Positions 338 through 37,728 of a stretch of 64,000 bases of DNA are shown piece by piece. A program made the position numbers and the translations under genes. The notes under the pieces are model-generated. The model saw only the letters and a list, made by a program, of their open reading frames with translations, did not search any database and was not told where the DNA came from. The stretch covers positions 393,572 through 457,571 of the forward strand of contig MHWQ01000002.1 of the NCBI GenBank assembly GCA_001824255.1, in the 5' to 3' direction. The DNA comes from Candidatus Zambryskibacteria bacterium RIFCSPLOWO2_02_FULL_51_21. GTDB lineage: Bacteria > Patescibacteriota > Minisyncoccia > Phycocordibacterales > Zambryskibacteraceae. Position 1 is the first letter of the stretch. Every line of letters begins with the position of its first letter.

Positions 338-1114
338 ATGATTATGAGAGCTAAAATATTATCTGCTCTTTTTCTCTCCTTGATTATGATAGGGGCGGCA
401 TTTTGGTCCAGATTTTTCGACAACAAACCGGCCGCCGGTCTCGCCACTGTTTCAAGTCCAAGCATCACACCAATGAACGATGAGGCTTTTTTGAGTGCCA
501 ATTTCACCGACTCGAGCAGCACTCCGCTCTCGACTACGGATATGCTGTCCAGACAACTTTTTTCCGATTATGCCGACCTTAAGTCCAAAGGCGAAACTTC
601 TTCCGAAAATCTCAATTATCTGGCGGAAAGATATGCGGAAGGCATTATGAACATCAGACCGGCTGCCTCAAAGGTCACTGCCATCGAACAGCTTACGATT
701 ATTCCGGATTCGGCAGAAAACACTTTCAACTACGGCAAGAGTATGATTGCCGCCCGCAGCAAATATGCCGCCTTGGCCAAAGAGGAGAGCGAAGGCGCGG
801 GCGATCTGAATCAAGAAGGTTTCGGCGACTTCATCACGCGAGCCGGAAATTTATACCTCGCTTCGGCGAATGAGCTGTTGAAAATAAAAGTACCCGCATC
901 ACTCGCTAGAAATCACCTGGAGATTATCAATGACTATTTCCAAACCGCCGAAGCCATGAGAACCATCGCGGAATCTTCCGACGACCCGGTAAAAATTTAT
1001 GCCGCCATCCAGACGCAAATCCGGAATGCAAAAAAAGAAGATGAATTGTTCTTAAACATCCAAATCGCCATGTCAGCCGGTGGTATAATTTGGTCAGGCA
1101 ACCTGAATCAATGA
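338..1114 (+). CDS. Hypothetical membrane-anchored protein (N-terminal TM helix, helical extracytoplasmic domain). First gene of the coupled operon.
   Basis: 258-aa ORF with hydrophobic N-terminus ILSALFLSLIMIGAAFW. Its stop overlaps the next start (ATGA at 1111-1114). Confidence 0.5.
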   Translation: MIMRAKILSALFLSLIMIGAAFWSRFFDNKPAAGLATVSSPSITPMNDEAFLSANFTDSSSTPLSTTDMLSRQLFSDYADLKSKGETSSENLNYLAERYAEGIMNIRPAASKVTAIEQLTIIPDSAENTFNYGKSMIAARSKYAALAKEESEGAGDLNQEGFGDFITRAGNLYLASANELLKIKVPASLARNHLEIINDYFQTAEAMRTIAESSDDPVKIYAAIQTQIRNAKKEDELFLNIQIAMSAGGIIWSGNLNQ

Positions 1115-3669
1115 GTTATAAAAAATTTACAGTCCTTATTCTCGCCCTCTCGATATCTTTTCTATCTTTTGCTCCGGTAGTCCGGGCCCAAACCGCGGTA
1201 CCGGTAAGCGACAGCGCCATAAGACAGAAGGAGGTCGGCATTACCGTATTTGGCGTTACCGTTCCCGGCCTAAGTTGGGACTCCATCGCGCTAACGATAG
1301 CAAAATCTACGATTAGCAGGCTCGTAAATTCCACAGTCAAATGGATTAACAACGGCTTCGACGGCAACCCGGCCTACGTAAACAATCCCAAACAATATTT
1401 TACGGATATCGCCGATGGAGAAGCGGGGGAGTTTATCAGAGGAAGCGAGCTCGGCTTGCTCTGTTCGCCATTTCAGGCCAATATCCGGCTTTCTTTGATG
1501 CAGGAATATTACGAGCCCCTGCCTTATCAATGCACCTTGAGCGAAGTTACAAGTAATATTGAAGGATTCTTTGACGATTTCTCGCAAGGTGGCTGGGATG
1601 CATGGTTCTCGATGACGCAGAACCCGACCAATAATCCTTACGGAGCATATCTCAAGGCGAGAATTGACATGGATAGTCGCATCGCAAACGCAATCGGACT
1701 CAAAAATCAGCAATTAGATCGAGGCAGGGGCTTTCTCTCGTTTGAAAAATGCCCATCAGGTTCCTTCGAGGGTACCGATGAGGAGCTCAATAAAGGATGC
1801 TTCAAGACCGGCACTTGGGAAAAGGTGGATGCGACAGTGGTTACGCCGGGAAGCGTGATAGAAACCCAGCTTTCCACCGTATTGGGTACCGGCATAAGAC
1901 AGCTCGAGCTCGCGGACGAGTTCGATGAAATCGTGGGCGCTTTAGTAACCCAATTACTTCAAAAAGTTCTCGGCGGCGGCGGGCTGGCAAGCGGAGCAGG
2001 TACGGGTGATACAGAAAGACCCCCGGGTCAGGAAAGAAGGCCTGTGCCAGTTGATATTGATGGCGACGGCATCATTGACGGCACGGATACTGATGGGAAT
2101 GGGAGCCCTGATATATGTCTCTTCGGCGGTGAAAACGATACGATAGGCCCACCATGTTTAGGCTCGGGAGAATTTGGACCACCGGAAGGCGGTGGAGGAG
2201 GTGACACTTGCTCCGTGAGCGGCCAGCAATACGAAGGCGTGTTAAGGGACGCCGAAGCGCAGGTGGCAAGCGTCAATCCCGAAGTGGCGAGCTTGCTCAA
2301 TCTTGAAGACGCCAATGGCTACAAGGCCAATAGTAAAAGGTTCTTGGATGTGGTAGTGCAAATTCTCGAGGGCCAGGGCTACAATGCCACCACCGATGTT
2401 CTGAACGGACACAATAATCCAAATACGGGCGACGCCATCGCCATCTGGAGAGACGGCGATAGCAATATGGAGCGCTACGACGCCATGCTTGGAGGGAACG
2501 GCAAACCGGTGTCCCAATCGGCTATTGCCGAATTCACGGGCTTCGTGCCTCTGGGCTGCACCACTTCCGGCGGGAGCAAGGAGTGCGGCTGCGACAACGG
2601 TTTGAATAATCCAAGCCCGAGCCCGTCGCCTTCGCCATCTCCCACACCCGCGCCAGTGCCGGGCGGAGCAAGCATTTCTTCCGTCACGCCAAATGTCGCC
2701 CAAGCCGGAGTGACGACCATTACCATCACCGGCACGAATCTCACTAATCAAGTCTCCTTCTATGACGGTACTGGGGCACGCAATACTGTTGTCGGCACCG
2801 TCAACTCCGCCGGAACTCAAACCACGGTCCTTGTCCCGGGCGATTTGCCTATTGGCAATGCCACGGTCAAGATTTACCAAGGCAATCAAGTCTGGTCGAA
2901 CGGCATCTTGATACAAATCAGTAGCCAGGCGGCGCCGGTAACCACCATTCCCACGACGGGGAGTATTGACCTCGGAGCCGGGACCTTCCCGGATACCGCA
3001 TACTTCAACAACAGAATCTATGTCGCTGTCCAGCAGAATGACAAACTTAATCTCTATAACTTCGACAAGAATCTCTCTGACCAGAAAGTAACCGTGATTC
3101 CGTTCTCCGTTGGCCAGGCTTTCCCGCGGCTTATGGTCTGGAATAATATCCTGTGGCTTGCTTTCAGAAATGGCGATAACTCAAGTGGCATAGCGGAATC
3201 AATCAAACTCTGGAGAAGCGACACGCAGGCGATAGAGGAGATTGCCGGCGGCTATGGCAACGACCCGGTCGCTCTCGGCCAGGGTTACATCGCCTGGCAA
3301 ACATTTACAGAACTTAAAATCAAGAGGAGACCTGTTTCCGGCGGAACAATTACGACGCTTGGCAACGCGCTCCCTACCGGTCTCTCGAGAATCTTAGCTG
3401 GTGGAAGCGTCATTTCCATAGACCAGGATAGAAACGCGGTGACATGGGGTTTGCGAGCCTGGTTCGCCGGCGACCTCACAGTGGCCGAAGATATCACTCC
3501 CCATGATGATAATGGGGCGGTCGGAAGATTCAATAATGATTCTTCGACCGAATTCAATCTCTGGGCGGGCCAGAGAACGCATACGCCACACGCGGCAACT
3601 GATGGGCTAGGCAATTACGTAGTCGCGACCTGGGACCCGACGGTGAGGGTGGCCACATTCAAGAAATGA
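1111..3669 (+). CDS. Large secreted protein with signal peptide, Asp/Gly-rich calcium-binding-like repeats, a Pro/Ser linker and an IPT/TIG-like beta-sandwich segment. Putative surface or adhesin protein.
   Basis: MSYKKFTVLILALSISFLSFAPVVRA-QT signal peptide. DIDGDGIIDGTDTDGNGSPD repeat. PSPSPSPSPSPTPAPVP linker followed by ISSVTPNVAQAGVTTITITGTNLTN (IPT/TIG-like). Start chosen at the internal Met so that it overlaps the upstream stop (ATGA). Confidence 0.55.
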   Translation: MSYKKFTVLILALSISFLSFAPVVRAQTAVPVSDSAIRQKEVGITVFGVTVPGLSWDSIALTIAKSTISRLVNSTVKWINNGFDGNPAYVNNPKQYFTDIADGEAGEFIRGSELGLLCSPFQANIRLSLMQEYYEPLPYQCTLSEVTSNIEGFFDDFSQGGWDAWFSMTQNPTNNPYGAYLKARIDMDSRIANAIGLKNQQLDRGRGFLSFEKCPSGSFEGTDEELNKGCFKTGTWEKVDATVVTPGSVIETQLSTVLGTGIRQLELADEFDEIVGALVTQLLQKVLGGGGLASGAGTGDTERPPGQERRPVPVDIDGDGIIDGTDTDGNGSPDICLFGGENDTIGPPCLGSGEFGPPEGGGGGDTCSVSGQQYEGVLRDAEAQVASVNPEVASLLNLEDANGYKANSKRFLDVVVQILEGQGYNATTDVLNGHNNPNTGDAIAIWRDGDSNMERYDAMLGGNGKPVSQSAIAEFTGFVPLGCTTSGGSKECGCDNGLNNPSPSPSPSPSPTPAPVPGGASISSVTPNVAQAGVTTITITGTNLTNQVSFYDGTGARNTVVGTVNSAGTQTTVLVPGDLPIGNATVKIYQGNQVWSNGILIQISSQAAPVTTIPTTGSIDLGAGTFPDTAYFNNRIYVAVQQNDKLNLYNFDKNLSDQKVTVIPFSVGQAFPRLMVWNNILWLAFRNGDNSSGIAESIKLWRSDTQAIEEIAGGYGNDPVALGQGYIAWQTFTELKIKRRPVSGGTITTLGNALPTGLSRILAGGSVISIDQDRNAVTWGLRAWFAGDLTVAEDITPHDDNGAVGRFNNDSSTEFNLWAGQRTHTPHAATDGLGNYVVATWDPTVRVATFKK

Positions 3670-5786
3670 ATCCTTACTTCAAAAAATTAACAGTTTTCCT
3701 TCTTGTACTTAGCTTTGTGTTCGGAGTGAGTGGAATCGTATCTTCTAAAAAAGCTTCCGCTATTAATACGGTTGAGCAGTGCATGGCGGAAATGCTCGCC
3801 GCGGCCAAACAAGCTGGAAAGAATATGACGGAAGATGAGGCTAGGGCAAATTGTCAGAAACTAATCGATGACGCCGTAAAACAAGCAGGCGGAGGAGGAT
3901 CTTTGTTTGATCTTCTCCAGCCCGCGGAATGGGTTGCTAAGGCCGCCGGGGCACTGGCTTCCGGAATACTGCTGCCCTTGGCCGGCTGGCTTACCTGGTT
4001 TAGCGGCATGCTCCTCAACTATGTAATCAAATACACAGTCGTGGACATGAAAGCCAACCTGGACGTTGATGCAGTAAATAATATATGGAAAACAATTCGT
4101 GACCTTGGCAACATGGGGTTCATCTTCGTTCTTCTCTACGCCGCTATTCAAACCATATTGGGTATTGGTAAAAATACTAAAGATTTGATTGTGCGAGTAG
4201 TGGTAGTAGCGATTTTAATAAACTTCAGCTTATTCTTTACGAAATTTGTCATAGACATTGCTAATGTCTTGGCCATTACTCTATATGACGCGGCCGCGCA
4301 CGGGGCATTGGCTGATAATCTCAATAGCGGCCTGGCTAATAGTCTTATGGAGCCGTTGGGGCTCCAATCGATTTGGAACGCCCAAGGAAGCTTAACCGGT
4401 TACACACTTCTCATAGCAGGCGTCATGGGCACGGTTGTGTCTCTTATAGCGGCATTCGTCTTCTTCGCCATCTCCATACTCTTCGTCATCAGATTCGTGG
4501 TTCTCCTCTTCGTACTGGCGCTTTCGCCAATCGCGTTCCTATCATTTGTCCTGCCGGAACTCAAGAAGTACCGCGACCAATGGTGGGGAGCGCTCTCCGG
4601 ACAAGCATTCTTCGCTCCGATTTATTTCCTGCTTACCTGGATTGTCATAGCCATCGCAAGAGGCATCCTAATGCCGCTTAGACCCGGCAGTATGGCAGAC
4701 GTTATCGCGGCGCAAGCGGGAAAGAGTGTGCCTGACCCGAGTTCGGTGGGAATCTTCGTGAACTACGCGATGGTCATAACTCTGCTGATTGCCTCTCTCG
4801 TCATCGCCAAGGAATGGGCCAACAAAGCCGGCGGCGGCATCAACAAACTCACAGGGTGGGCAACTGGCTTCGCCGGGGGAGCGACACTGGGGGCCGCTGG
4901 CAGATTTGGGAGAGGCACTGTGGGTAGAGCAGGTAGTTTATTAACTGAAAACGAGTGGCTTAAAGAAAAGGCGCCGACAAGCAGGATGGCTCGCCTGGCA
5001 CTTGCTACGGGCAAGAAGACTGCTGGGGCAAGCTTCGACCTGCGTGGAACCGGTTTGAGTTCTCAACTGGATGCCGGTAAGGCACAGAAAGGTGGATTTG
5101 CCGCAGATCTTAAGAAAAAAGTTGATACTGAAAAGAAATATGCGGATGAAACCTTCAAGCCATCGGAGTTAATGGTTGCTCAAGCGGAACGAGACCTTGG
5201 CCAAGCCAAAAAGACTGGCACGCCAGCGGACATAGCGGCAGCACAAGCAAAACTGGACAAAATCAATGGAGCCAGCGAAGATACGCTCCGTCAAAGAAAG
5301 ATTAAAGAACTCCGCGCCACAGGAAAGAGTAAAAAGGAGGCAAGAATTCTAGTGGATGAGCAAGAAGATAAATATTTGCAGGAAGTTAACAGACTTACTA
5401 CCAGCGGTATGGGTCAAGAGGACGCCGAGAAAGATGCCCAGAGCAGGGGCTTCGTAACTTTCAAAGCAATCGAGGGTCTGACTAATACCAGAAAAGGAGC
5501 TTACGCCAAGACTGTCGAGGAACAGAAGGTAAAGATACCATTCACACAAAAAGCTATTCCATTTGCTATCACCGGCCGACTCGGAATGTTTGGCCCCGTG
5601 AAGAAAGAAAACAAACTGGCTGCAAATGCCATTAGAAAAAGTATGAAAGAAAAGAAGCCTGGAGAAAAAATTGCAGAGGAGATAGAGAAGCAAGCCAGAG
5701 AATCAAGTGATGAGTCTGGGGCAACGCCCACACCCCCCACCACACCAACAACTCCTCCACCAGCCGCAGGCCCAACAACACCATGA
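3666..5786 (+). CDS. Polytopic inner-membrane protein (at least 6 TM helices) with a long K/E-rich coiled-coil C-terminal tail ending in a Pro/Thr-rich segment. VirB6/TrbL-like putative T4SS channel component.
   Basis: Signal or anchor MNPYFKKLTVFLLVLSFVFGVSG. Multiple long hydrophobic stretches, e.g. LLIAGVMGTVVSLIAAFVFFAISILFVIRFVVLLFVLALSPIAFLSFVL. C-terminal TPTPPTTPTTPPPAAGPTTP. Translationally coupled (ATGA) to both neighbours. Confidence 0.45.
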   Translation: MNPYFKKLTVFLLVLSFVFGVSGIVSSKKASAINTVEQCMAEMLAAAKQAGKNMTEDEARANCQKLIDDAVKQAGGGGSLFDLLQPAEWVAKAAGALASGILLPLAGWLTWFSGMLLNYVIKYTVVDMKANLDVDAVNNIWKTIRDLGNMGFIFVLLYAAIQTILGIGKNTKDLIVRVVVVAILINFSLFFTKFVIDIANVLAITLYDAAAHGALADNLNSGLANSLMEPLGLQSIWNAQGSLTGYTLLIAGVMGTVVSLIAAFVFFAISILFVIRFVVLLFVLALSPIAFLSFVLPELKKYRDQWWGALSGQAFFAPIYFLLTWIVIAIARGILMPLRPGSMADVIAAQAGKSVPDPSSVGIFVNYAMVITLLIASLVIAKEWANKAGGGINKLTGWATGFAGGATLGAAGRFGRGTVGRAGSLLTENEWLKEKAPTSRMARLALATGKKTAGASFDLRGTGLSSQLDAGKAQKGGFAADLKKKVDTEKKYADETFKPSELMVAQAERDLGQAKKTGTPADIAAAQAKLDKINGASEDTLRQRKIKELRATGKSKKEARILVDEQEDKYLQEVNRLTTSGMGQEDAEKDAQSRGFVTFKAIEGLTNTRKGAYAKTVEEQKVKIPFTQKAIPFAITGRLGMFGPVKKENKLAANAIRKSMKEKKPGEKIAEEIEKQARESSDESGATPTPPTTPTTPPPAAGPTTP

Positions 5787-6319
5787 ACGAGCAAGATAAA
5801 TTAATTCAAGAACAGTTCCAAAAGCTCCCGCTAGCGCTGCAGAAGGCGCTCGGAGAGATTCCGTGGAAATCTTTAGTCAATGAAATTGCGCGGCTGCACA
5901 ATTTGAAGCCGGAACAGGTGGAGAGCATCGAGACAGAGACGATGTTTATCCTCTACGGCTTCGAGAGTCCGGACGATTACGTCTCCAATATGGTCCGCGA
6001 AACTGGTATTGCCGAAGATTTGGCGTATGTCATCGCAAACGAAGTAAACGAGAAAATTTTCAAGCCTGTTTCTGTGAAAGTTGAGGAGGCAGGCAAACAA
6101 CAACCAACCTCAACTTCCATTCCCGAACTCAAACCAGAGAATCTGCCGATGGTTGAGAAAGGGGAGATGGTACATGAGGTGCCACACGTAGAAGCACCAA
6201 ATCCCAAATCACAAATTCCAAACAATATCGAAATTCCAAAAGAAGAAAAACCTCCTATCCAACCAGCTAAAAGCGCTTATGTGGGCAGCCAGGACCCTTA
6301 TAGAGAACCACTATCATGA
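5783..6319 (+). CDS. Hypothetical acidic soluble protein inside the T4SS-like operon.
   Basis: 178-aa ORF with ATGA overlaps on both sides. No TM segment. Glu/Asp-rich. Confidence 0.45.
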   Translation: MNEQDKLIQEQFQKLPLALQKALGEIPWKSLVNEIARLHNLKPEQVESIETETMFILYGFESPDDYVSNMVRETGIAEDLAYVIANEVNEKIFKPVSVKVEEAGKQQPTSTSIPELKPENLPMVEKGEMVHEVPHVEAPNPKSQIPNNIEIPKEEKPPIQPAKSAYVGSQDPYREPLS

Positions 6320-6750
6320 GATTCCAAGTACCACAATTTATCGAGGTTGAGGATAAGATTTTCGGGCCTTTGACCTTCAAGCAGTTCGTCTATGTGGCGG
6401 GCGGGGGAGGCATCATCGTCATTTTCTTCGTCCTCCTGCCCAAGTTCATAGCCATCCTTCTCGCTTTACCGATAGCGGCCTTCGCCGGCGCGCTTGCCTT
6501 CTATAAAGTGAACGACAAGCCCTTCATCAATTTCGTCGAATCGTTCTTCAATTATTCGCTAAAGAGCAAGCTTTATATCTGGAAGAAGGAGGATAAGAAG
6601 CCCGAAGCGGGAACCGCCTCCGCTCCGGGCCAGATTGAGCAGGTTCACGTGCCGAAATTGTCCGAATCGAAGCTCCGCGAGCTTACTTGGTCACTTGATA
6701 TAAAGGAAAATAGGAATCCGGTCACGAACGAGCCGGAAAATAAGTTATAA
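6316..6750 (+). CDS. Small two-TM membrane protein, PrgI/VirB3-like, of the kind that usually precedes VirB4 in Gram-positive-type T4SS.
   Basis: 144 aa. Two hydrophobic helices (GGGGIIVIFFVLLPKFIAILLALPIAAFAGALAF). Located immediately upstream of the VirB4-family ATPase. ATGA overlap with the upstream gene. Confidence 0.45.
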   Translation: MRFQVPQFIEVEDKIFGPLTFKQFVYVAGGGGIIVIFFVLLPKFIAILLALPIAAFAGALAFYKVNDKPFINFVESFFNYSLKSKLYIWKKEDKKPEAGTASAPGQIEQVHVPKLSESKLRELTWSLDIKENRNPVTNEPENKL

Positions 6751-7403: not shown

Positions 7404-9296
7404 ATGGGAATTTTTGATTCACTTTTTAAAAAGGAGGCAAAGCGAGAAGATATTTCCTCAATTTTACCTAAGGAAATCTTCGAAGCGGGCGCCCTGGAGC
7501 TCAAAGACATCATCGCTCCCTCAGCTCTGAAGGTCTCGCCCAAGGAAATAAACTTGGGCGAGAAAATCCTGCGCAGCTTCTTCGTCATCTCCTATCCGCG
7601 CTATCTCGCCGAGGGCTGGTTCTCGCCCATTATCAATATGGACAAGGTTTTCGACGTCTCGATCTTCGTCCACCCGATTGAAACCTCGAAAGTACTTCGC
7701 CAGTTCCAGAGGAAGGTGGCCGAAGTGCAGTCCCAGATTCACACCAGGGAAGAAAAGGGCCTGGTGCGCGACCCCATGCTCGATGTGGCCTATCAGGACC
7801 TCGAGAACTTGCGCGACCAGCTCCAGCAGGCGCAGGAGAAGCTTTTCGATGTCGGGCTATATATCACCATCTACGGCGACAGCGCCGACGAACTCGACAA
7901 GGTTGAGAGCGAGATTAAGTCAATACTTGAGGCCAAACTCATTTATGTGAAGCCGGCCCTCTTCCAGCAGGAAGAGGGCTACAAATCAACCCTGCCTTTA
8001 GGCAATGACGAACTGAACGTCCACTCCAAACTCAATTCTTCCCCGCTCTCCTCGCTGTTTCCATTCACCTCCTTCGACCTTACTTCGGACAAAGGCATTC
8101 TCTACGGCATAAACAGGCACAACTCTTCGCTTATTCTCTTCGACCGCTTCTCGCTTGAGAACTACAACTCGGTCACCTTCGCCAAGGCGGGCGCCGGCAA
8201 GTCCTACGCCACCAAGCTTGAGATTCTCCGCACGCTCATGTTTGATACTGAGGTTATCGTCATCGACCCGGAGAAAGAGTACGAGTACATGGCCGAGGCG
8301 ACAGGCGGGCGCTACTTCAACATTTCCCTCAATTCCGAACACCACATCAATCCCTTCGACCTGCCCGTGCCGGGACCGGACGAGAGCGCCGCAAACGTCT
8401 TGCGCTCCACCATCATCAACCTGGTGGGCCTCTTCCGCCTCATGATGGGCGGCCTCACCGCCGAGGAAGACGCCATCATCGACCGCGCCATTACCGAAAC
8501 GTATGCGCTCAAAGACATTACTGCCGATTCCGACTTTAGAAACATCGAGCCACCCTTGATGTCTGACTTCGAGCTGGTGCTCTCCGGCATGGAAGGAGGA
8601 GAATCTCTGGCCCAGCGTCTGTCCAAGTACACCAAGGGCACTTGGGCGGGCTTCATCAACAGGCCTTCAAATGTGGATATCAACAGAAAGTTCGTGGTCT
8701 TCTCGCTCCGCGACATGGAAGATGAGCTTAAGCCCATAGCCATGTACATCGTCACGCACTATATCTGGAACACCATCAGAAAAGAGCTTAAGAAGCGCCT
8801 GCTCGTAATCGACGAGGCCTGGTGGATGATGAAGTCCGACGACACCGCCTCTTTCCTCATGGGTCTCGTCAAGAGAGGTAGGAAATATTACCTGGGTGTT
8901 GCCACTGTTACTCAAGATGTAGGCGACTTCCTCAAATCGCCTTACGGCGTGCCTATCATCACCAACTCCTCAATCCAGATGCTTTTGAAGCAGTCACCAG
9001 CAACGATTGACGAACTGCAAAAAACTTTCAATCTTACCGACGAGGAGAAATATCTTCTTTTGGAATCAGATGTTGGAGAAGGAATCTTCTTCGCCGGACT
9101 CAAACATGTGGCTATAAAGAATATTGCTTCGTACACAGAGCATCAAATTATCACCTCCGACCCAGGTCAGATCCTGGCCATAAAGAAGGCAAAGCAAGAC
9201 GCGGCCGAAGACCAGGATGAAGCGCTCATGGCCCAGCGGGAGAAACTGAAGCAGGCCGCCTTAAATCCAAATGCCGGAGAAAAAGGGACTCAGTAG
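7404..9296 (+). CDS. VirB4/TrbE/CagE-family T4SS ATPase (central and C-terminal ATPase domains).
   Basis: Walker A FAKAGAGKSYATK. VIVIDPEKEYEYMAEATGGRYFNISL. Walker B-like LLVIDEAWWMM. Overall VirB4 domain order. Confidence 0.8.
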   Translation: MGIFDSLFKKEAKREDISSILPKEIFEAGALELKDIIAPSALKVSPKEINLGEKILRSFFVISYPRYLAEGWFSPIINMDKVFDVSIFVHPIETSKVLRQFQRKVAEVQSQIHTREEKGLVRDPMLDVAYQDLENLRDQLQQAQEKLFDVGLYITIYGDSADELDKVESEIKSILEAKLIYVKPALFQQEEGYKSTLPLGNDELNVHSKLNSSPLSSLFPFTSFDLTSDKGILYGINRHNSSLILFDRFSLENYNSVTFAKAGAGKSYATKLEILRTLMFDTEVIVIDPEKEYEYMAEATGGRYFNISLNSEHHINPFDLPVPGPDESAANVLRSTIINLVGLFRLMMGGLTAEEDAIIDRAITETYALKDITADSDFRNIEPPLMSDFELVLSGMEGGESLAQRLSKYTKGTWAGFINRPSNVDINRKFVVFSLRDMEDELKPIAMYIVTHYIWNTIRKELKKRLLVIDEAWWMMKSDDTASFLMGLVKRGRKYYLGVATVTQDVGDFLKSPYGVPIITNSSIQMLLKQSPATIDELQKTFNLTDEEKYLLLESDVGEGIFFAGLKHVAIKNIASYTEHQIITSDPGQILAIKKAKQDAAEDQDEALMAQREKLKQAALNPNAGEKGTQ

Positions 9297-9597: not shown

Positions 9598-10265
9598 GAA
9601 AACTAGTCTTTCTGTTTTTTATCTACTTATTCTTTTCCACCCCAGCCCTTGCCCAGTCTGTTGATATTCTCTGGCAGGGAACGGGCTACATTCCGCCGTT
9701 TTACGAGGGCAAAATGCTTTGGGCCAAGCAGTCAGTCATTACTCTCGTGGCTATTCCGCAAGGATTGGGTAACCCCGCAAACCTTAATTACAAATGGACT
9801 CGTAACGGCACCGTGCTGGGCAACGTCTCCGGCATTGGCAAAAACTCTCTAACCTTCATGGACGCCGTTTTCTCCAAACCCTACACGATAAAGGTTGAGA
9901 TTGTTGACGGGAATGAAGAGACGCGCGCGGAAGCGACACAGGTCATCGCGGCAAGAGACCCCCTGCTACTGGTCTATGAGAATCACCCCTTGTACGGATA
10001 TCTTTTCAATAAAGAGATTGGGGGTGTCTTCAAAATGAACAAGGAGGAGGCCACCTTCACCGCCTTCCCCTTATTCGCACAGCAAAGAGCGGGGGCTTAT
10101 TCCTGGCGGGCCAATAGCGGAGAGCCTTCCGGCGGCAACACTGTCACTTACCGCGCGCCGGAAGGGGCGAGCGGCGTCTCCAGGGTAAACGTAAGTTTCT
10201 CTGATGGCAACGCGATAATGAGGCCTATCGAGCGCAGTTTCTTGATACAATTTGGCAATGAATAA
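9594..10265 (+). CDS. Secreted protein with cleavable signal peptide. Function unknown.
   Basis: MRKLVFLFFIYLFFSTPALA-QS signal peptide. Overlaps neighbours at both ends. Confidence 0.5.
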   Translation: MRKLVFLFFIYLFFSTPALAQSVDILWQGTGYIPPFYEGKMLWAKQSVITLVAIPQGLGNPANLNYKWTRNGTVLGNVSGIGKNSLTFMDAVFSKPYTIKVEIVDGNEETRAEATQVIAARDPLLLVYENHPLYGYLFNKEIGGVFKMNKEEATFTAFPLFAQQRAGAYSWRANSGEPSGGNTVTYRAPEGASGVSRVNVSFSDGNAIMRPIERSFLIQFGNE

Positions 10266-11139
10266 ACTTATTATTTCTATCTTTTTTCTGGCGCTTGCAG
10301 TTCCCGTCCTTGCCCAGGAAGCCAAGCCGACCGACTACACCATGCTTGCTCCCATACCCCAGCTTGCCACGGAGGGAGAGAAGACAAATGCCGTAACGTA
10401 CGTGACGGGTCTCTTCAAGCTCGCCATAGGTCTCGCCGGAGCGCTCGCGGTGGTGATGATTATCTACGCAGGCATCAAATATATGTCCACGGACGCTTTC
10501 AGCGGCAAGGAGGAGGCCAAAGGCGTCATCGAGAACGCCCTCTGGGGCTTGGGGCTGGCAATAGCCGCCTGGCTCATCCTCTATACCATCAACCCGAAGC
10601 TGGTGGAAATAAAATTCGACATAGCACCGCAGCAAATCGCCACGACCACAACAACGCTTGGTGGGGATCTGCCGGGAGGGGGTTGGGGGGGCGGAGGGGG
10701 AATTCTTCCTGGATATCCGCTTAGCCCAGAACAAGTGGCTGAGAACACGCAAATTAGGGATAAACTTAAAAACAACAAACCCTATCCTGTCTTGGTAAAT
10801 AATGACCCTTGCGCGACAGGAGGGACAATCGGGTGCACAAATGTTGTCGGTCTGCCGGACTCAGCCCTCACTAGTGCTAAAATCCTGGCTAATGCGTGCA
10901 AATGCACAATAACAATCACCGGAGGAACGGAGGGCGGTCATTCCAACCATGGACCAGGGAGGGCAGCTTTCGATCTTTCGCCCATTGGAGCTCTGAATAC
11001 TTTTCTCAGTAAAACTAACCCCCAAGCAGCCTTCCCTAGCAATGGTGCAAAAGTAAGAATCGGAACAACCGTTTACACTTTTGAAACCGCGGGAGCGAAT
11101 GGCAGAGCCACCGCTAACCATTGGCATGTAGAGCTTTGA
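10252..11139 (+). CDS. T4SS pilin-like protein (signal peptide plus two hydrophobic helices, as in CPR and Firmicutes conjugative pilins) with a Gly-rich linker and a roughly 170-aa C-terminal extension domain.
   Basis: MAMNKLIISIFFLALAVPVLA-QEA signal peptide. KLAIGLAGALAVVMIIYAGIKYMST...AKGVIENALWGLGLAIAAWLILYTINPKL matches the pilin-like pattern. GGDLPGGGWGGGGGILPG linker. Confidence 0.5.
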   Translation: MAMNKLIISIFFLALAVPVLAQEAKPTDYTMLAPIPQLATEGEKTNAVTYVTGLFKLAIGLAGALAVVMIIYAGIKYMSTDAFSGKEEAKGVIENALWGLGLAIAAWLILYTINPKLVEIKFDIAPQQIATTTTTLGGDLPGGGWGGGGGILPGYPLSPEQVAENTQIRDKLKNNKPYPVLVNNDPCATGGTIGCTNVVGLPDSALTSAKILANACKCTITITGGTEGGHSNHGPGRAAFDLSPIGALNTFLSKTNPQAAFPSNGAKVRIGTTVYTFETAGANGRATANHWHVEL

Positions 11140-16176: not shown

Positions 16177-16415
16177 AAAATCTTTCGAAACTCTTAGAAA
16201 GATTTTCAAACATACTCAACAAAGACACAGAAACAAAGAACACAATAATCAGGATTATAAAAGATAAAACCAATATAGAATTAAAATCAAATCAAATAAA
16301 TCTCAAAAATGGCGTCCTGGAAGTCGAAGCGTCGCCTGTTGTAAAAAACGAAATCAGACTCAAGGAAGATTTATTGAAACAAGAATTAAAAATCTCCAGG
16401 ATTTTGTATAAATAA
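16173..16415 (+). CDS. DUF721/DciA-like small protein, a possible helicase-loader homologue.
   Basis: 80 aa. GVLEVEASPVVKNEIRLKEDLLKQEL resembles the DUF721 core (GVLTVEV-SSAWAQEL-FLK--LL). ATGA overlap with the dnaN stop. The 3' end overlaps the convergent PBP gene. Confidence 0.45.
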   Translation: MKNLSKLLERFSNILNKDTETKNTIIRIIKDKTNIELKSNQINLKNGVLEVEASPVVKNEIRLKEDLLKQELKISRILYK

Positions 16416-18515
16416 AACTGGTTGCTGTATCGGAATCTGCGCGGCTACCCAGCGCCTCACACTATATTCCCAGTGAGGATACTGAGGGTCGTTGGCCGGA
16501 TTTGATGGCGTCGGGCCGCGGGGATTATCCTTCTCCACCCAATAGAGTATTGAATGCGGCTCGCCTCCGACTTCACCCCTCAAAACAGGCTTCAATTCCG
16601 AAGGATTAATCGGCTCGGGCTTCACAAACGACTCCTCGGGCATGTCCGGAAGGACTTTATCTATGAGGTCGCGCCAAAGAGGCGAGACGATAAGACCGGC
16701 AACCTTCTTCTCCATAGGGGAGTTGTCATTATTACCCACCCATGCGCCAATAACCAGGTTTGGGGCATAGCCGATTATCCAGGCATCACGGTAGTCGTTC
16801 GAGGTACCGGTCTTTACCGCTACGTCGCGGTAGGGGACGTACAGGGCCGAATTAGGGCCGTATCCGGGTGTTCTAGCTACGTTGTCGGAAAGAATATCTG
16901 AGACGGTCCTGGCCGTCTCCTCGGGCAAAACCCGCAACGGGAAAAGTTCGCTTCTATCTATGATATTGCCCTTATCATCCTCAACTCTCACTATCGGTGT
17001 GTATTGATTCCTCACTCCGTCATTGGCGAAGACTCCGTAGGCGGACACCATGTCAAGAAGGGAAACTGAGCCGCCTCCGAGAACGAGCGAGAGTCCGTAG
17101 CTGTTCACATCAGTAAGACTCTGAATACCCATCTCTTTCGCGAGCTTGATTGAGTCCCGCACTCCGGCGAGATAAATCGCTTCCACCGCCGGCACGTTGA
17201 TGGACTGTGCCAAAGCATTTCTTATGGTCATCGGGCCGCGGAACTTATCGTCGTAGTTCCCCGGGCTGTAGCACGGGTCCTTGCTCTCAAAATCATCCTC
17301 TGCGCAGGAAGGATTAAATTGGGTTGGCACGTCCCAGAGAATGGTGTCGGCGGTGTAGCCTTTATTGAAAAGAAGCGAATACACGACGGGTTTGAAAGCG
17401 GAGCCAGGCTGCCTCAGGCCCGTGGCGGCGTTGAAGTTGCCGTCGATTTTCTGGTCGAAGTAGTTGCGCGAGCCGGTCATGGCAAGAATCTCGCCGGTCT
17501 TCGGGTCGAGCGCCACAACGGCATTGTTGTTGGCGTTGAATTTCCCCTGATTTATTTCCCCGTATTGTTTGGCGAGCTTCTCCGCTTCCTCCTGAATGTG
17601 ATAATCGAGAGTGGTGATTATTTTGTAGCCGCTGTTCTCCAGCGTACCCTCGCCATACTTCTGGGTCAGCTGTTCAATGACAAAGAAAACGAAATGCGGC
17701 GCGCGTATATTGTCGGTATTTTTCTTTTCGTTGAAAACAACTTTTTCCGAAAGTGCCTTGTCATGCTCTTCCTGAGAAATTAGTCCATTTTTAAGCATTT
17801 CGGCGAGAACCAGGTCTTTCCTCTCACCAAGTTCTTTCTGGTGCGAGCCGTAAGGCGAGTAATAAGTCGGAGCTTTGAGCACCGCCGCGAGATAGGCCGA
17901 TTCGGCAAGCGAGAGGTCGGCCGCGCTTTTGCCGAAGAAGCTATGTGACGCCTCGCCGACGCCGTAAATGGTGCCGCCGTAAGGAATCTCGTTTAAATAA
18001 AGAGTCAGAATCTCGTCTTTGGTAAGCACTTTCTCGAGTTTTATGGCAAGGATAAGCTCCTTTAACTTCCTTGTTGGTGTCTTATCCTTGGTCAGGATGG
18101 AATTTTTGACCACTTGCTGAGTGATGGTGGAGCCGCCCTGGCTGAAGGAGAGGGAAGTAAGATTCACCAAAACGGCACGGACGAATGATGAGAGCACAAA
18201 ACCGTTGTGAGAATAGAAATCTTTGTCCTCGATGGCAATGGTGGCCGATTTAACGTACGGAGAAATTGCTTCGAAGGGCACCTGCTCGCGCCTGACGTCG
18301 CGGCTCATGTCATAAAGGAGAACCTCGCCGGTGCGGTCGTAAATCTTGGTGGACTGGTCGATTTTCCTCTCGCTAATGCTCTCAAGGGCTGGAATCCGGA
18401 GTGAGGCTATCCAGAGGACAAAGAGTCCGCAGACGAAGAGGGCCGCCGCCCCGGCGGCCCAGTAATGGTTCGAATTGCGGAACTTCCTCCAGAAATTCAT
18501 CATTAGAGAACCCAT
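16386..18515 (-). CDS. Class A penicillin-binding protein (bifunctional glycosyltransferase/transpeptidase, PBP1A-like).
   Basis: GT51 motif QGGSTITQQVVKN. Transpeptidase SxxK (PGSAFKP). N-terminal membrane anchor. Confidence 0.9.
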   Translation of the reverse strand: MGSLMMNFWRKFRNSNHYWAAGAAALFVCGLFVLWIASLRIPALESISERKIDQSTKIYDRTGEVLLYDMSRDVRREQVPFEAISPYVKSATIAIEDKDFYSHNGFVLSSFVRAVLVNLTSLSFSQGGSTITQQVVKNSILTKDKTPTRKLKELILAIKLEKVLTKDEILTLYLNEIPYGGTIYGVGEASHSFFGKSAADLSLAESAYLAAVLKAPTYYSPYGSHQKELGERKDLVLAEMLKNGLISQEEHDKALSEKVVFNEKKNTDNIRAPHFVFFVIEQLTQKYGEGTLENSGYKIITTLDYHIQEEAEKLAKQYGEINQGKFNANNNAVVALDPKTGEILAMTGSRNYFDQKIDGNFNAATGLRQPGSAFKPVVYSLLFNKGYTADTILWDVPTQFNPSCAEDDFESKDPCYSPGNYDDKFRGPMTIRNALAQSINVPAVEAIYLAGVRDSIKLAKEMGIQSLTDVNSYGLSLVLGGGSVSLLDMVSAYGVFANDGVRNQYTPIVRVEDDKGNIIDRSELFPLRVLPEETARTVSDILSDNVARTPGYGPNSALYVPYRDVAVKTGTSNDYRDAWIIGYAPNLVIGAWVGNNDNSPMEKKVAGLIVSPLWRDLIDKVLPDMPEESFVKPEPINPSELKPVLRGEVGGEPHSILYWVEKDNPRGPTPSNPANDPQYPHWEYSVRRWVAAQIPIQQPVLFIQNPGDF

Positions 18516-33958: not shown

Positions 33959-34219
33959 ATTTTTTATTAATGTCGTTTAGATTTTCCAAACACCATATAT
34001 TATCCCATACTTTTTAGGGGAGTGCGACAGGTTCTCTTGGCGGGGACGATGCCCGGAACTTTGAACTCAAAGCACGGCTCAAACCCTGCCTTGCCGGCAG
34101 GCAGGTCGAGGATCTTGATAAAAGTATACAGAAACTACGAGCTATCTACAAAGTTCATCCTGAGTGGTTTGAGACGCCAAAACCAAAATCTGATAAGGGG
34201 AAAAATGAACTGACCTATA

Positions 34220-34804
34220 CTATTTCTTAAAAAACTTCTCCTTGACTTCAGCAACACTCATTATCTTTAATTTACCACTCAACTTATTATCTTGGATAAT
34301 TCTCTTTCCTTCTTTCGACAAAAGTTCGTCGTGTGTAATCAAAACTTGGCAATAGCTCGCTCGCGATCCGAGCATTGCCGAAGCTAAATGAATGGCATCC
34401 GGAGCAGAAAGATTTGAGTTAAATGAAATAGCTTGTGCTAATTGCCAATCATCACTGTTTTTCAAAAAGTCATACAGGTCTATATTTTTGTAATCTTGCT
34501 TAAATTCATTAAACCATTCATATACCTTTTCAAAATCTCCACGCCTTAAATCTTTTTTGTCTGTTGCGCGTATTATTTTTCGCATTTCCCATTTTTTCTC
34601 AATCGCTTTATCTATAACAAACAAACTGTCTTTCTTGTAGTCTGCCATTTCCATCGCCAGAAAGGACGAGCTGACACACTTCCACCCCTTATCTTTTAAT
34701 TTACCGAGAACCAAAACTGTCTGGCGGTTACGCCCAGTAAGATAATCCAACGCGATGTTGGTATCAATATAAAACGATTTACTTTTTCTTGTCCCTTTTG
34801 GCAT
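34220..34804 (-). CDS. PIN-domain protein (VapC-like nuclease with C-terminal extension). Putative toxin.
   Basis: FYIDTNIALDYL (first acidic motif). APDAIHLASAML (third acidic motif). THDE near the C-terminus. Confidence 0.5.
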   Translation of the reverse strand: MPKGTRKSKSFYIDTNIALDYLTGRNRQTVLVLGKLKDKGWKCVSSSFLAMEMADYKKDSLFVIDKAIEKKWEMRKIIRATDKKDLRRGDFEKVYEWFNEFKQDYKNIDLYDFLKNSDDWQLAQAISFNSNLSAPDAIHLASAMLGSRASYCQVLITHDELLSKEGKRIIQDNKLSGKLKIMSVAEVKEKFFKK

Positions 34805-34952
34805 AAAATTCTACTTTGACTGGCTTGGTTACTTCCTTATGTCCCTTGAAAGAAACTTTTTCGCCATCTTTTGTGTAAAATTCAACCTTAACAGGTTTGG
34901 ATACCGGTTTTTCGGCAGTGAATTCAACTTTTTGTCGGCGTTGCTTAGACAT
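34779..34952 (-). CDS. Small Lys-rich 57-aa ORF with an internal tandem repeat. It overlaps the PIN gene start and is a putative antitoxin or partner protein.
   Basis: Manual translation: MSKQRRQKVEFTAEKPVSKPVKVEFYTKDGEKVSFKGHKEVTKPVKVEFYAKRDKKK. Duplicated KPVKVEFY motif. Overlaps the downstream ATG by 26 nt in another frame. Below the 60-aa cutoff of the ORF track. Confidence 0.3.
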   Translation of the reverse strand: MSKQRRQKVEFTAEKPVSKPVKVEFYTKDGEKVSFKGHKEVTKPVKVEFYAKRDKKK

Positions 34953-34968
34953 AGAATTATGAAAAAAT

Positions 34969-37260
34969 TTAGATCAATTCGTTAATTTTTTTGTCTTGAT
35001 CTTCGGCTATCTTAGCTACTGCTTGTAAGTGTTTTTCTTTCTCCGATTCCTTTGCGTCCAACTCTTTTATAATCTTCTTCTGAATTTCAACCGATGGCAA
35101 AGGAATTTCAACTATGCGCATTATATCTTTATTTAATGTTTTTCCTTTTGTTGCCCTTTGACTATATGTAGAGTAATCCAATCTGGGCAACAGGTAGTAA
35201 AGATATTTTGTAAGAACTCGGTTATCTTTCGGAACAATGCCTGCTATTGCTTCATTTGTGTAGAGTTCCTTCGCGGTTATAGCCACCTTGCCAATTGTAA
35301 GCTTAAAACTGAAGAGGAGAGTATCTATTGGCAATAATTTAACATTGGATTCTTTTACTCCCTTGTCGGTAATTTTTTCTTCAGTATTAGAAATATACAT
35401 TTGACGATTCATATCCCTGATTTTTACCCACAAATTTTTGCCACCATACAAACTCAAGTCTTTACGAGAGGGAGTCCCACCAATAACGATATCGCAAACC
35501 TCACCTAATTTAACAAAGTCAGTTGTTTTCTTGCCTTGCTTTCGATATTTATCCATCGAAAGTTTATACTTCTCCGCTACAATTTTTTTGAAATCAACCG
35601 AAAATGAATGGTTGGAATTTTCTTTGTCCTTCCAAATTTGCCTTAGCAAAATTAAATCATTTGCCTCAATCGGCGATCTTCCTAATTTGCTTCCTGTTTT
35701 TTTAAAGCCGTCTTCTTGAACATCAAAAAACCAAACATTTTGAGTTTGCCTGCCTTTTTCAAAAATAAGAATGCTTGTCGGTTGTCCGGTATAGGGCTTA
35801 AAGACGAATTCGTGCAACTTAATAACCGCGACAACATTACAGGTTTCTAAGAGGATTTTTCTTATTTTGATATACTCTGAATTTTCATCGAACAACAGAC
35901 CCTCTGGAACAACAACACCGGCAATTCCACCATTATCTAAAGAATCAATAATGTGCTTCAAGAAAACGGGATTTGCGTCCTCGCTGTTAAATCCATAAAA
36001 TGCGCTATAGTCTGTTGTTTGAGAAAAGGGGAAATTTGTTAAAACAACATTGTAATCACCTTTAACTGGATTTTTTAAACTATCCATTTGCTTAATGTTG
36101 TTGTGCCCATCGCCAATGATAATCATATTCATTTTGGCGATTTTGGCTGTGCCAGAGATCTCTCTGCCATATACCGTTTTCTCTTTCAAAATTTGTAGGT
36201 TTTCCTTAGTTTGTTTGCATTTATTCTTGATATGTCTAAATGCTTCAATCAAAAATCCTCCTGTGCCACAAGCAGGATCGTAAATCTTATCTCCAAATTT
36301 TGGATCAACTAGATCAACAATCAACTTAACAATATGTCGTGGCGTGAAGTATTCTCCCAAGTCAGTCCCAACGCTAACCGAATTTTTGAGAAAGTATTCA
36401 AATGCATCACCCTTTATATCAGAGTCAGCATCTAATAATTTCAGGGAAGAAAGCTTATCAACTATTTTCTTTAAGTTCTCGGGGCTTTTTATTAATAAAT
36501 TTTGCTGAAAAACATCTCCGCTGTGGTTATACTTATTAACTAACCTAGGCAAAATAATATTGTTAACATATTCGAGCATTCGATCTGGATCGAGCTTATA
36601 GAAACTTTCCCAACAATACTTTTTTTCAAGTATTCTCTGCTCGCCACTATTTTCTCTATCCTCTTCAATTTCACTAATGAGTTTTAAGAATAAGAGATTA
36701 GAAAATTCAGCAAATCTTTCTATTCCTTCCCTAATGCCTTCTTTACGAAGCAAATCATTTGCCTCAGAGAATATTTTTATAAGCTCTCTCTTGGTGTAAG
36801 TTATTTTTTCCGGAGAATACAATTGAGAGCCATGCTCTAAAAATTTAAGTAATTGTTTTTCCGAAATAAATTCCGTGATGATCTGGTCGTCTAACTTTAA
36901 ATTGCTTTTACTTCGAACATCGTGCGATTCAACAATTGAACCGTCAGTAACAAAAATGATATCCAAACCCAAAGGTTCGGCATAGAGATTAATCGCTTGA
37001 TTCAAGGCCTGCCTAAGGCTTTGCCCACTTCTCTTAGCTTCAATTATTCCTATTGGGTCGTCAGTTCCAGATTTATAAAGAACATAGTCTGGATTCTTGC
37101 CTTTAAATTTTTTATTCTGTTCTGTGGTTTTTGCTCTCTCTGTAAACACATTGCAGTCAGGTGAAGTTTCGTCCGTGTTCCAACCCAAATTAGCAAGAAT
37201 CAAATCAATCTTCTTTCTTGTTGCACTCTCTAATGTTTTGGTAAAAATTGGTGTAGACAT
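34969..37260 (-). CDS. Single-chain restriction-modification enzyme. It has an N-terminal PD-(D/E)xK nuclease, an N6-adenine gamma-class methyltransferase and a C-terminal HsdS-like target-recognition domain (Type IIG/IIB-like).
   Basis: NPDYVLY...IIEAKRSG (PD-ExK). Motif I IYDPACGTGGFLIEA. Motif IV TNFPFS. C-terminal TRD LGEVCDIVIGGTPSRKD...KNLWVKIRDM typical of Type I S subunits. Confidence 0.8.
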   Translation of the reverse strand: MSTPIFTKTLESATRKKIDLILANLGWNTDETSPDCNVFTERAKTTEQNKKFKGKNPDYVLYKSGTDDPIGIIEAKRSGQSLRQALNQAINLYAEPLGLDIIFVTDGSIVESHDVRSKSNLKLDDQIITEFISEKQLLKFLEHGSQLYSPEKITYTKRELIKIFSEANDLLRKEGIREGIERFAEFSNLLFLKLISEIEEDRENSGEQRILEKKYCWESFYKLDPDRMLEYVNNIILPRLVNKYNHSGDVFQQNLLIKSPENLKKIVDKLSSLKLLDADSDIKGDAFEYFLKNSVSVGTDLGEYFTPRHIVKLIVDLVDPKFGDKIYDPACGTGGFLIEAFRHIKNKCKQTKENLQILKEKTVYGREISGTAKIAKMNMIIIGDGHNNIKQMDSLKNPVKGDYNVVLTNFPFSQTTDYSAFYGFNSEDANPVFLKHIIDSLDNGGIAGVVVPEGLLFDENSEYIKIRKILLETCNVVAVIKLHEFVFKPYTGQPTSILIFEKGRQTQNVWFFDVQEDGFKKTGSKLGRSPIEANDLILLRQIWKDKENSNHSFSVDFKKIVAEKYKLSMDKYRKQGKKTTDFVKLGEVCDIVIGGTPSRKDLSLYGGKNLWVKIRDMNRQMYISNTEEKITDKGVKESNVKLLPIDTLLFSFKLTIGKVAITAKELYTNEAIAGIVPKDNRVLTKYLYYLLPRLDYSTYSQRATKGKTLNKDIMRIVEIPLPSVEIQKKIIKELDAKESEKEKHLQAVAKIAEDQDKKINELI

Positions 37261-37346
37261 ATTACCTCTATTGTATCAACTCAAAAAGGATTTGAAAAGG
37301 TGGTTCGTTTTCAGCCCTGTTTTATTAGGGTTCAAAGTTGCCAATC

Positions 37347-37434
37347 TGGCGGAGAGGGTGAGATTCGAACTCACGATACCTTGCGGTATGACGGTTTTCA
37401 AGACCGTTGCCTTAAACCACTCGGCCACCTCTCC
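37347..37434 (-). tRNA. tRNA-Ser (anticodon TGA), class II with long variable arm. CCA encoded.
   Basis: Reverse-complement GGAGAGGTGGCCGAGTGG...ACGGT CTTGAAA ACCGT...CCTCTCCGCCA. Confidence 0.85.
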
Positions 37435-37468
37435 GAAAAGTGATGTTATCACTTTTCGGCAGTCTTAA

Positions 37469-37702
37469 CTATTTCTCCTCCACGACTTCCACTTTGTAAT
37501 TTCGGCTCACCAGGAATAGATAAATGATTTCCAGAATACCCAAGGTGTTAATGATAAGAAGGGCGGCGAACCACCACTTCTGGCGAAGGCCTGCGGCGCG
37601 CCAGAGGGCAAGCCCCTTCCAAGCTATCGTCCATACGATGACGAAGACGATGGCCCAGACCGGGATGCCTACGAGCGCAGCCAATGTATTGATGGATTCC
37701 AT
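37469..37702 (-). CDS. Small two-TM membrane protein.
   Basis: 77 aa. IPVWAIVFVIVWTIAW and WFAALLIINTLGILEIIYLFLV helices. Confidence 0.4.
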   Translation of the reverse strand: MESINTLAALVGIPVWAIVFVIVWTIAWKGLALWRAAGLRQKWWFAALLIINTLGILEIIYLFLVSRNYKVEVVEEK

Positions 37703-37728
37703 GACTTATATTGTACTATATTTAGACA

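Follow-up and report, generated by a model that had tools for sequence, protein, structure and literature searches.

In a 64,000-nucleotide stretch of the genome of Candidatus Zambryskibacteria bacterium RIFCSPLOWO2_02_FULL_51_21 (contig MHWQ01000002.1, positions 393,572 to 457,571; hereafter, the window), we analysed a gene that lies on the forward strand within a type IV secretion system (T4SS) operon. The encoded protein consists of three parts: a signal peptide followed by a two-helix hairpin of the VirB2-like pilin type, a linker that is disordered and rich in Gly and Thr, and a compact C-terminal domain of 143 amino acids (aa). With moderate confidence, we propose that it is a two-module T4SS subunit of the Paceibacteria type, in which the pilin hairpin carries a putative LAS-type zinc hydrolase that would cut peptidoglycan at the secretion machine.

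The gene had been described in an initial annotation as a pilin-like protein on an open reading frame (ORF) at 10252..11139 of the forward strand, encoding 295 aa from a TTG codon. This ORF was present and the sequence features quoted for it were exact. The true start is likely the ATG at 10258; the database protein P0001, which is 100% identical to the fusion protein, has 293 aa, and the homologues open with M-N/K-K. Residue numbers given here, such as Q22 or the domain limits 153-295, count from the TTG in the 295-aa form. The ATG overlaps the stop codon of the gene upstream (ATGAATAA; 10258-10265), and the TGA is followed one base on by the ATG of the next gene at 11141. Therefore, the fusion gene is part of a closely spaced operon. 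It is probably co-transcribed and translationally coupled with its neighbours, and the spacing points to such coupling from virB4 through the four genes after it. More than 100 full-length homologues with 35-56% identity, covering >90% of the fusion protein, were identified, indicating that the fusion architecture is neither a one-off nor an assembly artefact.

The N-terminal part was identified as a VirB2-like T4SS pilin. The Pfam family T4SS_pilin (PF18895) matched residues 49-112 at 31.8 bits (E = 1.6e-7), above its gathering score of 26.6. This match and the T4SS operon around the gene support the pilin assignment of the initial annotation, and the significance of the match speaks against a generic signal-anchor of an unrelated secreted protein. 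When 134 members of the family were scanned against Pfam, T4SS_pilin was detected in 112 and TrbC/VirB2 in 38. A hydrophobic N-terminus ending in A-Q was kept across the homologues, and the signal peptide is probably cleaved before Q22. The AlphaFold2 model of the full-length protein, built on an alignment of 66 sequences, comprised a helix (residues 6-14), the hairpin (47-79 and 85-113), a disordered segment (approximately 118-152), and a confidently predicted C-terminal domain. The short loop between the two long hydrophobic helices of the hairpin carries a conserved STDA..GK. The disordered segment includes the stretch previously quoted as the linker (GGDLPGGGWGGGGGILPG; TTTTTLGGDLPGGGWGGGGGILPG), and the linker columns of the 66-sequence alignment were gappy and unconserved, with both length and sequence differing among homologues. 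The model thus bore out the earlier view of the protein as unusual in that a flexible linker leads to a globular C-terminal passenger. The 170-aa extension reported there is indeed an extension, made up of a linker of about 35 aa and the 143-aa domain rather than of a domain of that length. Shorter pilin paralogues were searched for in the 64-kb window, using a hidden Markov model (HMM) of the family on six-frame ORFs and a hydropathy screen of small ORFs, and none was found.

Similar hairpins were also seen elsewhere. In a scan against NCBIfam, the hairpin weakly matched Mbov_0395, a 'pilin-like conjugal transfer protein' of a Mycoplasma integrative and conjugative element (ICE), and the Mycoplasma ICE families MMCAP2_0566 and Mbov_0396, whose proteins are roughly 300 aa long, also gave weak matches. 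Pilin-like hairpins with long C-terminal extensions may hence occur in ICEs of Mollicutes as well. In 'bacterium CG10_46_32' (locus L037, 3200-7300), at least seven tandem T4SS_pilin genes (ORFs of 118-218 aa) were located beside a fragment of the C-terminal domain; this array resembles those reported for Saccharimonadia and Microgenomatia.

The C-terminal domain was characterized by modelling, profile search, and alignment. Residues 153-295, when modelled alone by AlphaFold2, gave a predicted local distance difference test score (pLDDT) of 96.5 and a predicted template modelling score (pTM) of 0.91, and the modelled elements followed the order alpha-beta-alpha-beta-beta-alpha-alpha-beta-beta-beta. 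An exhaustive profile search with the domain returned 2,508 cluster representatives at E <= 1e-3, including 1,710 at E <= 1e-10. Nearly all of the top 150 matches were 270-330 aa long and had the domain at the extreme C-terminus. Five residues (H230, H233, D241, E278, and H290) were invariant in alignments of 66, 54, and 134 sequences. W291, H292, and the GGTEGG motif were at least 90% conserved in both the 66- and the 134-sequence alignments; H292 was replaced by Asp in a minority of sequences and in Actinomycetota. In short-loop homologues, the terminal region reads E-x-x-H-W-H. The domain also contains two cysteine pairs, C187-x7-C195 and C216-K-C218. All four cysteines were at least 90% conserved among the 66 sequences from the candidate phyla radiation (CPR), and in the 134-sequence set, which is mixed and takes in divergent variants, C187, C195, and C216 reached 90% with C218 below. 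The Actinomycetota proteins keep the C-x7/8-C pair and one Cys ahead of ITGGTE. The four cysteines probably form disulfides, the pairing of which we infer from the alignments, and such bonds fit an extracytoplasmic location of the domain.

The arrangement of the invariant residues resembles that of zinc peptidases of the LAS superfamily, which are defined by the motifs H-x6-D and H-x-H plus a catalytic Glu (PMC6027127). The pattern of the domain, ITGGTEGGH-xx-H-x7-D...E...H-W-H-V-x-x(end), has this layout: H233, D241, E278, and H290, which correspond to the zinc ligands and the catalytic Glu of LAS enzymes, occur in the same order, and their strand positions match in alignments with sonic hedgehog (Shh). 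The role of E278 as a general base is proposed from the description of the LAS family (PMC6027127). Five lines of comparison, namely Pfam, a PDB profile search, two hhalign comparisons, and the TM-scores of Foldseek, point to the LAS superfamily. In the unselected Pfam scan of the 134 members, the sole recurrent non-membrane family was Peptidase_M15_4 (11 members), and one member gave a weak HH_signal match. The best Peptidase_M15_4 match was that of P0078 (E = 7.4e-5, 23.7 bits against a cut-off of 25 for PF13539), which covered profile positions 2-70 of 70. P0078 shares 40% identity with the window protein along its entire length and represents a homologue subfamily that has the exact SxHxxGxAxD motif with x6 spacing. 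A profile (A4) of 17 members with this motif was compared with the whole PDB, and all 23 matches were Hedgehog N-domains (E = 0.004, 45 aligned columns); in this alignment, a helix and the segment ITGGTEGGHstgSsHntGkavDi paired with the corresponding segment of the Hedgehog N-domain. With hhalign, the broad family aligned with Shh through the same motif segment (E = 0.001), and in a relaxed run H-W-H fell on H181-I-H183 of Shh. The hhalign comparison with the T5-endolysin/CwlK alignment (PF13539) gave E = 2.8e-4, with motif I only, which reads SxHxxGxAxD in the T5-endolysin family. Foldseek, as applied to the domain model, had Shh and Indian hedgehog (Ihh) in PDB (TM-score up to 0.42) and phage 'Peptidase M15A' in BFVD (0.41-0.43) among its best structures by TM-score.

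Several points weigh against this assignment and against the reading built on it. The C-terminal domain of the window protein itself had no sequence match in Pfam, PHROGs, NCBIfam, or PDB. Every M15 or Hedgehog match of the family fell below curated or conventional thresholds, and the hhalign probabilities for the Shh and T5-endolysin comparisons were 21-41%. The 17-member profile had been picked by a regular expression for an M15-like motif and is biased in that respect, with an alignment that extends well beyond the motif. The canonical x6 spacing between His and Asp is x7 in the window protein (H233-GPGRAAF-D241). In a profile comparison with MepK of Escherichia coli (M15), the H..D motif alone was aligned, without significance. 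Catalysis, metal binding, and localisation at the T4SS are proposals. In addition, the global modes of hhalign were unsuccessful in the profile comparisons. In the structure prediction and structure search that the initial annotation had recommended, residues 153-295 were modelled confidently and Foldseek returned no significant match to PDB or BFVD. Two other candidates were set aside. Histidine kinases, the sole PDB return for the full-length model (E > 0.08), have a helical hairpin beside an alpha/beta domain by coincidence, and a PDB search with the broad profile of the family (A2) gave one chance match only.

The same domain was found in other lineages together with peptidoglycan-related modules. 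Species genomes of GTDB were scanned with the 17-member subfamily profile as the query, the broad profile being too diverse, and 55 loci with the domain were obtained. About 21 of these were outside the CPR: 20 from Actinomycetota and one (locus L032) from an archaeal metagenome-assembled genome (MAG). The Actinomycetota carriers (L026-L060) included Streptomyces, among them megabase linear giant plasmids, as well as Spongiactinospora, Nonomuraea, and Kitasatospora. Their domains matched the CPR domain HMM at E values of 1e-17 to 1e-22 and had H-W-D in place of H-W-H as the terminal motif, and the proteins lacked any pilin part. Among the approximately 21 non-CPR homologues, the fusion partners ahead of the domain were PG_binding_1 in 10, GH25 lysozyme in three, and SLT in one (the archaeal L032). 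For example, the protein at L035 (5125-6396) comprises GH25, two PG_binding_1 modules, and the domain, and that at L057 (5479-6396) comprises a signal peptide, two PG_binding_1 modules, and the domain. The RefSeq labels for the Actinomycetota proteins were only 'GH25 family lysozyme', 'peptidoglycan-binding protein', and 'hypothetical protein', indicating that the domain is unnamed there too.

Fusions with SLT were observed in two forms. P0191 (L005, 2748-3896) and the protein at L032 (5281-6399) have the layout of a transmembrane segment, SLT, and the domain. In two CPR genomes, a gene encoding T4SS_pilin and SLT stands right after the pilin-peptidase gene (L040, 6602-7858; L048, 6422-7690); the scores in L040 and L048, respectively, were 30.6 and 29.3 bits for T4SS_pilin and 26 and 25 bits for SLT, all above threshold. 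Judging from these pilin-SLT fusions, pilin hairpins seem to serve quite generally to carry modules of wall hydrolases. Autolysins and endolysins classically combine a glycosidase and a peptidase in this way. As a separate observation, L032 is from a MAG labelled archaeon, and the domain gene in L005 has as neighbours small proteins whose class III signal peptides look archaeal (KGAELSL.., KKADLSLQ..); this is a hint of DPANN-type episymbionts that carry hydrolases of bacterial walls.

We next consider the surroundings of the fusion gene (Table 1). The gene order in the window is PrgI, TraC-like, VirB4, two genes without a Pfam family, the fusion gene, the 407-aa gene, yidC, and dnaA. Local tblastn over the fetched loci revealed a core order shared by approximately 30 CPR genomes: TraC-like, VirB4, the 223-aa gene, the fusion gene, the 407-aa gene, yidC on the opposite strand, and dnaA. 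PrgI was upstream in most of these loci; in L002 and L004 it was encoded by the other strand. The orthologue of the 223-aa protein held the same position in most of the loci, and the 108-aa protein was present in six only. The orthologue of the 407-aa protein adjoined the fusion gene in approximately 30 loci and was ahead of it in three; a small rearrangement of the locus was seen in L040, L048, and L053. The 223-aa and 407-aa proteins are candidates for further surface components of the T4SS. A Pfam scan of the operon detected no SLT, CHAP, NlpC, or M23 protein and no other recognisable wall hydrolase. T4SS clusters of Patescibacteria (Paceibacteria) are located near oriC (PMC12102498), and the arrangement in the window agrees with this. 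Just downstream, genes for YidC, DnaA, DnaN, a class A penicillin-binding protein (PBP; 16386-18515), and a class I (Trp/Tyr-type) tRNA synthetase were found. These genes indicate that the window is chromosomal, and the class A PBP indicates that the organism makes peptidoglycan.

Table 1. Features of the pilin-peptidase fusion gene and its operon in the window (residue numbers from TTG).
Feature	Position	Strand	Basis or remark
PrgI/VirB3-like gene	6316-6750	+	Pfam PrgI, 1e-12
TraC-like gene, 214 aa	6758-7402	+	Orthologue carries PF26593 (TraC-like)
VirB4-type ATPase gene	7404-9296	+	Pfam P-loop_TraG, 2.6e-24
Membrane protein gene, 108 aa	9271-9597	+	No Pfam family; between virB4 and the fusion gene
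Secreted protein gene, 223 aa	9594-10265	+	No Pfam family; directly upstream of the fusion gene
Pilin-peptidase fusion coding sequence	10258..11139	+	293 aa from ATG (likely start); mechanical ORF from TTG 10252; TGA 11137-11139
Predicted Sec signal peptide, MNKLIISIFFLALAVPVLA	10258..10314	+	Sequence reading; helix 6-14 in the AlphaFold2 model
VirB2-like pilin hairpin	10390..10590	+	PF18895 match; AlphaFold2 helices 47-79 and 85-113
Flexible linker, VEIKFDIAPQQIATTTTTLGGDLPGGGWGGGGGIL	10603..10707	+	Thr/Gly/Pro-rich; pLDDT <50 at 129-147
C-terminal 143-aa domain, putative LAS-type (M15/Hedgehog-like) zinc peptidoglycan peptidase	10708..11136	+	Residues 153-295
Four cysteines, C187-x7-C195 and C216-K-C218	10810..10905	+	Conservation in alignments
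Motif GGTEGGH230-SN-H233-GPGRAAF-D241	10921..10974	+	Proposed catalytic His and first two zinc ligands (His, Asp)
E278, proposed general base	11083..11085	+	Invariant; equivalent of Shh E177 and the Glu of VanX/VanY ExxH
H290-W291-H292, H-x-H on the last beta strand	11119..11127	+	Holds the proposed third zinc ligand
Gene for 407-aa protein with N-terminal membrane helix	11141..12364	+	No Pfam family; last gene of the operon

Other parts of the window were also inspected. Upstream of PrgI (338-5786), three large ORFs of 258, 859, and 706 aa that share its orientation had no Pfam match at E <= 0.01. Orthologous ORFs precede PrgI in L002 (914 and 747 aa) and L004 (499 and 643 aa), and the large ORFs are possibly VirB6/TrsD-like membrane components. 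At 34001-38000, the GC content was 0.37-0.40 compared with approximately 0.50 elsewhere, and a tRNA cluster (Ser, Arg, Leu, Val; 37.3-40.4 kb) is near this stretch, which may be an island or an intergenic-rich region. The tRNA and Rfam scans of the window yielded nothing relevant.

Here, we propose a model for the function of the fusion protein. After Sec export and removal of the signal peptide, the VirB2-like hairpin would reside in the membrane or in the T4SS/pilus, with both ends outward. Both ends lie outside in the topology of VirB2-type pilins, and hence the linker and the Cys-containing domain would be extracytoplasmic. The linker of about 35 residues would tether the 143-aa domain with a reach of approximately 10 nm, enough for the wall around the machine. 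The domain would be a divergent LAS-type (M15/Hedgehog-DD-peptidase-like) zinc hydrolase, with H233, D241, and one His of H290-W-H292 as the putative zinc ligands, E278 as the general base, and H230 also in the site. It may cut peptide stems or cross-links of peptidoglycan locally, next to the secretion machine, and such cleavage would let the T4SS/pilus through the producer's wall or open the wall of a host. In this way, the domain would supply the wall-opening role that VirB1-type enzymes have in other systems. The analysis itself establishes the architecture, the residue conservation, the gene order, and the domain associations, whereas zinc binding, catalysis, bond specificity, the wall that is cut, and polymerisation or processing of the hairpin are inferred.

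Other explanations have to be weighed against this model. The fusion might polymerise into an extracellular T4SS pilus, with an enzyme exposed on the surface by every subunit that acts on the host wall, and not on that of the producer, as an effector or 'drill', or with a wall-binding adhesin; this reading agrees with all of the data, and we regard it as rather unlikely. In its favour, the hairpin matches T4SS_pilin above threshold, there is no second pilin gene in the 64-kb window, the long flexible linker would let the domain protrude, and the C-terminus is outside the filament in VirB2/TraA-type pilins, as in the F- and T-pilus structures. On the other hand, the window is part of the genome and further pilins could be encoded outside it, packing may be sterically difficult if each subunit bears a 143-aa domain, and free-living Streptomyces carry the same domain in ordinary autolysin-like architectures. 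T4SS and pilin arrays are essential for the growth of Patescibacteria epibionts on their hosts (PMC12857230), but no T4SS pilus of Patescibacteria has been demonstrated so far (PMC12857230). The initial annotation had offered the passenger as a candidate adhesin or effector. We reject the adhesin because the residues H..H-x7-D..E..H-W-H, typical of LAS/M15, are invariant and the fusion partners elsewhere bind or cleave peptidoglycan; an effector is possible if the enzyme acts on the host wall. An extended form of this idea, in which the T4SS filament of Paceibacteria is an enzymatic tool whose zinc-peptidase pilins, joined in some genomes by sibling SLT pilins, digest through the host wall and open the conduit that these epibionts depend on, is speculative and in our estimation unlikely.

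That the product is instead a pro-pilin or polyprotein, cut in the linker after export to yield a short mature pilin plus a wall hydrolase in free, soluble form, appears improbable. The fusion would then ensure co-expression and co-export; the linker is disordered and variable, TrbC of RP4 loses C-terminal residues before cyclisation, and the domain occurs without the pilin in other lineages. However, no conserved cleavage motif was visible in the linker alignment, and virtually every CPR member retains the fusion, as judged from the T4SS_pilin matches in 112 of 134 sequences. A second pilin-hydrolase fusion, the pilin-SLT protein, also exists, which suggests that tethering itself is selected. 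It is very improbable that the C-terminal domain is a non-catalytic module on a LAS scaffold that binds peptidoglycan stem peptides or another ligand as an anchor or adhesin. In favour of such binding, no peptidase family threshold was passed, and the closest relatives by sequence among solved structures are the signalling domains of Hedgehog proteins, for which an enzymatic role is disputed (PMC6027127). However, the five putative catalytic or metal-binding residues, including E278, are invariant across hundreds of diverged sequences, and this invariance makes a non-catalytic function unlikely; Drosophila Hh, which lacks activity, has lost exactly these residues (PMC6027127). Furthermore, the Actinomycetota proteins already have PG_binding_1, so that a second binding module would be redundant. 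A pilin-tethered wall hydrolase hence remains the explanation that we prefer.

This interpretation bears on the biology of the CPR and on T4SS research, in particular on how a T4SS crosses cell walls and whether a pilus is built. The T4SS is essential for epibiotic growth in Southlakia epibionticum, the sole genetically tractable strain studied so far (PMC12102498, PMC12857230). A VirB1 homologue is missing from most Patescibacteria that have VirB2-like pilins, and a survey concluded that none may be needed (PMC12102498). As an alternative, wall-cutting modules may be present as C-terminal passengers on pilin-like proteins, the passengers being a candidate peptidase that is unnamed in family databases and, in some genomes, SLT. 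T4SS pilins, LAS wall peptidases, and T4SS-associated hydrolases are already known; for the fusion architecture and for the domain family, no description was found in the literature searched, including surveys of Patescibacteria T4SSs, or in Pfam or NCBIfam. The analysis defines a large unannotated domain family (2,508 cluster representatives) in CPR bacteria, in Streptomyces including giant plasmids, and in some archaeal MAGs, and it adds a putative distant prokaryotic branch to the Hedgehog/DD-peptidase superfamily.

Compared with known systems, the C-terminal domain shares E...HxH with the Hedgehog N-domain and the bacterial Hh-like M15A proteins (PMC6027127), and the subfamily profile adds the alignable segment of a helix and ITGGTEGGH..SxHxxGxAVD. 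It differs from Shh in that the residues of the calcium-binding loop (WDEDG insert) are absent, and overall identity is very low with marginal statistics. The LAS/MEROPS M15 enzymes (Peptidase_M15_4 with T5 endolysin and CwlK; VanY/VanX; MepK) have the same order of (S)xH..G.A.D, E, and last-strand His, and in both cases the chain ends a few residues past this His. Unlike these enzymes, the window domain has x7 spacing, an extra N-terminal helix, a Cys-loop region, GGTEGGH with an additional invariant His, and a terminal H-W-H (or H-W-D). The VirB2-like T4SS pilins of Patescibacteria and Firmicutes (PF18895; TrbC/VirB2, PF04956) resemble the N-terminal part in their signal peptide and hydrophobic hairpin, to the extent that the Pfam threshold was passed, and those of Paceibacteria are likewise encoded beside VirB4 and PrgI/VirB3 near oriC. 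The pilins known so far are small proteins whose chain stops after helix 2, whereas the 293-aa window protein adds a linker and an enzyme-like domain. Finally, the VirB1-type hydrolases of Gram-positive systems (PrgK of pCF10 and TraG of pIP501), which combine SLT and CHAP (PMC12102498), resemble the fusion protein, a predicted wall hydrolase, in being exported, anchored in the membrane, and encoded in a T4SS operon. Their pairing of glycosidase and peptidase recurs in the SLT-domain proteins (P0191, L032) and in the pilin-SLT genes beside pilin-peptidase genes (L040, L048). In contrast to the VirB1-type enzymes, the window protein contains no SLT, CHAP, or NlpC/P60 in the Pfam scan; its peptidase is a candidate metalloenzyme of the LAS type and not a cysteine enzyme, and the anchoring part is a pilin hairpin.

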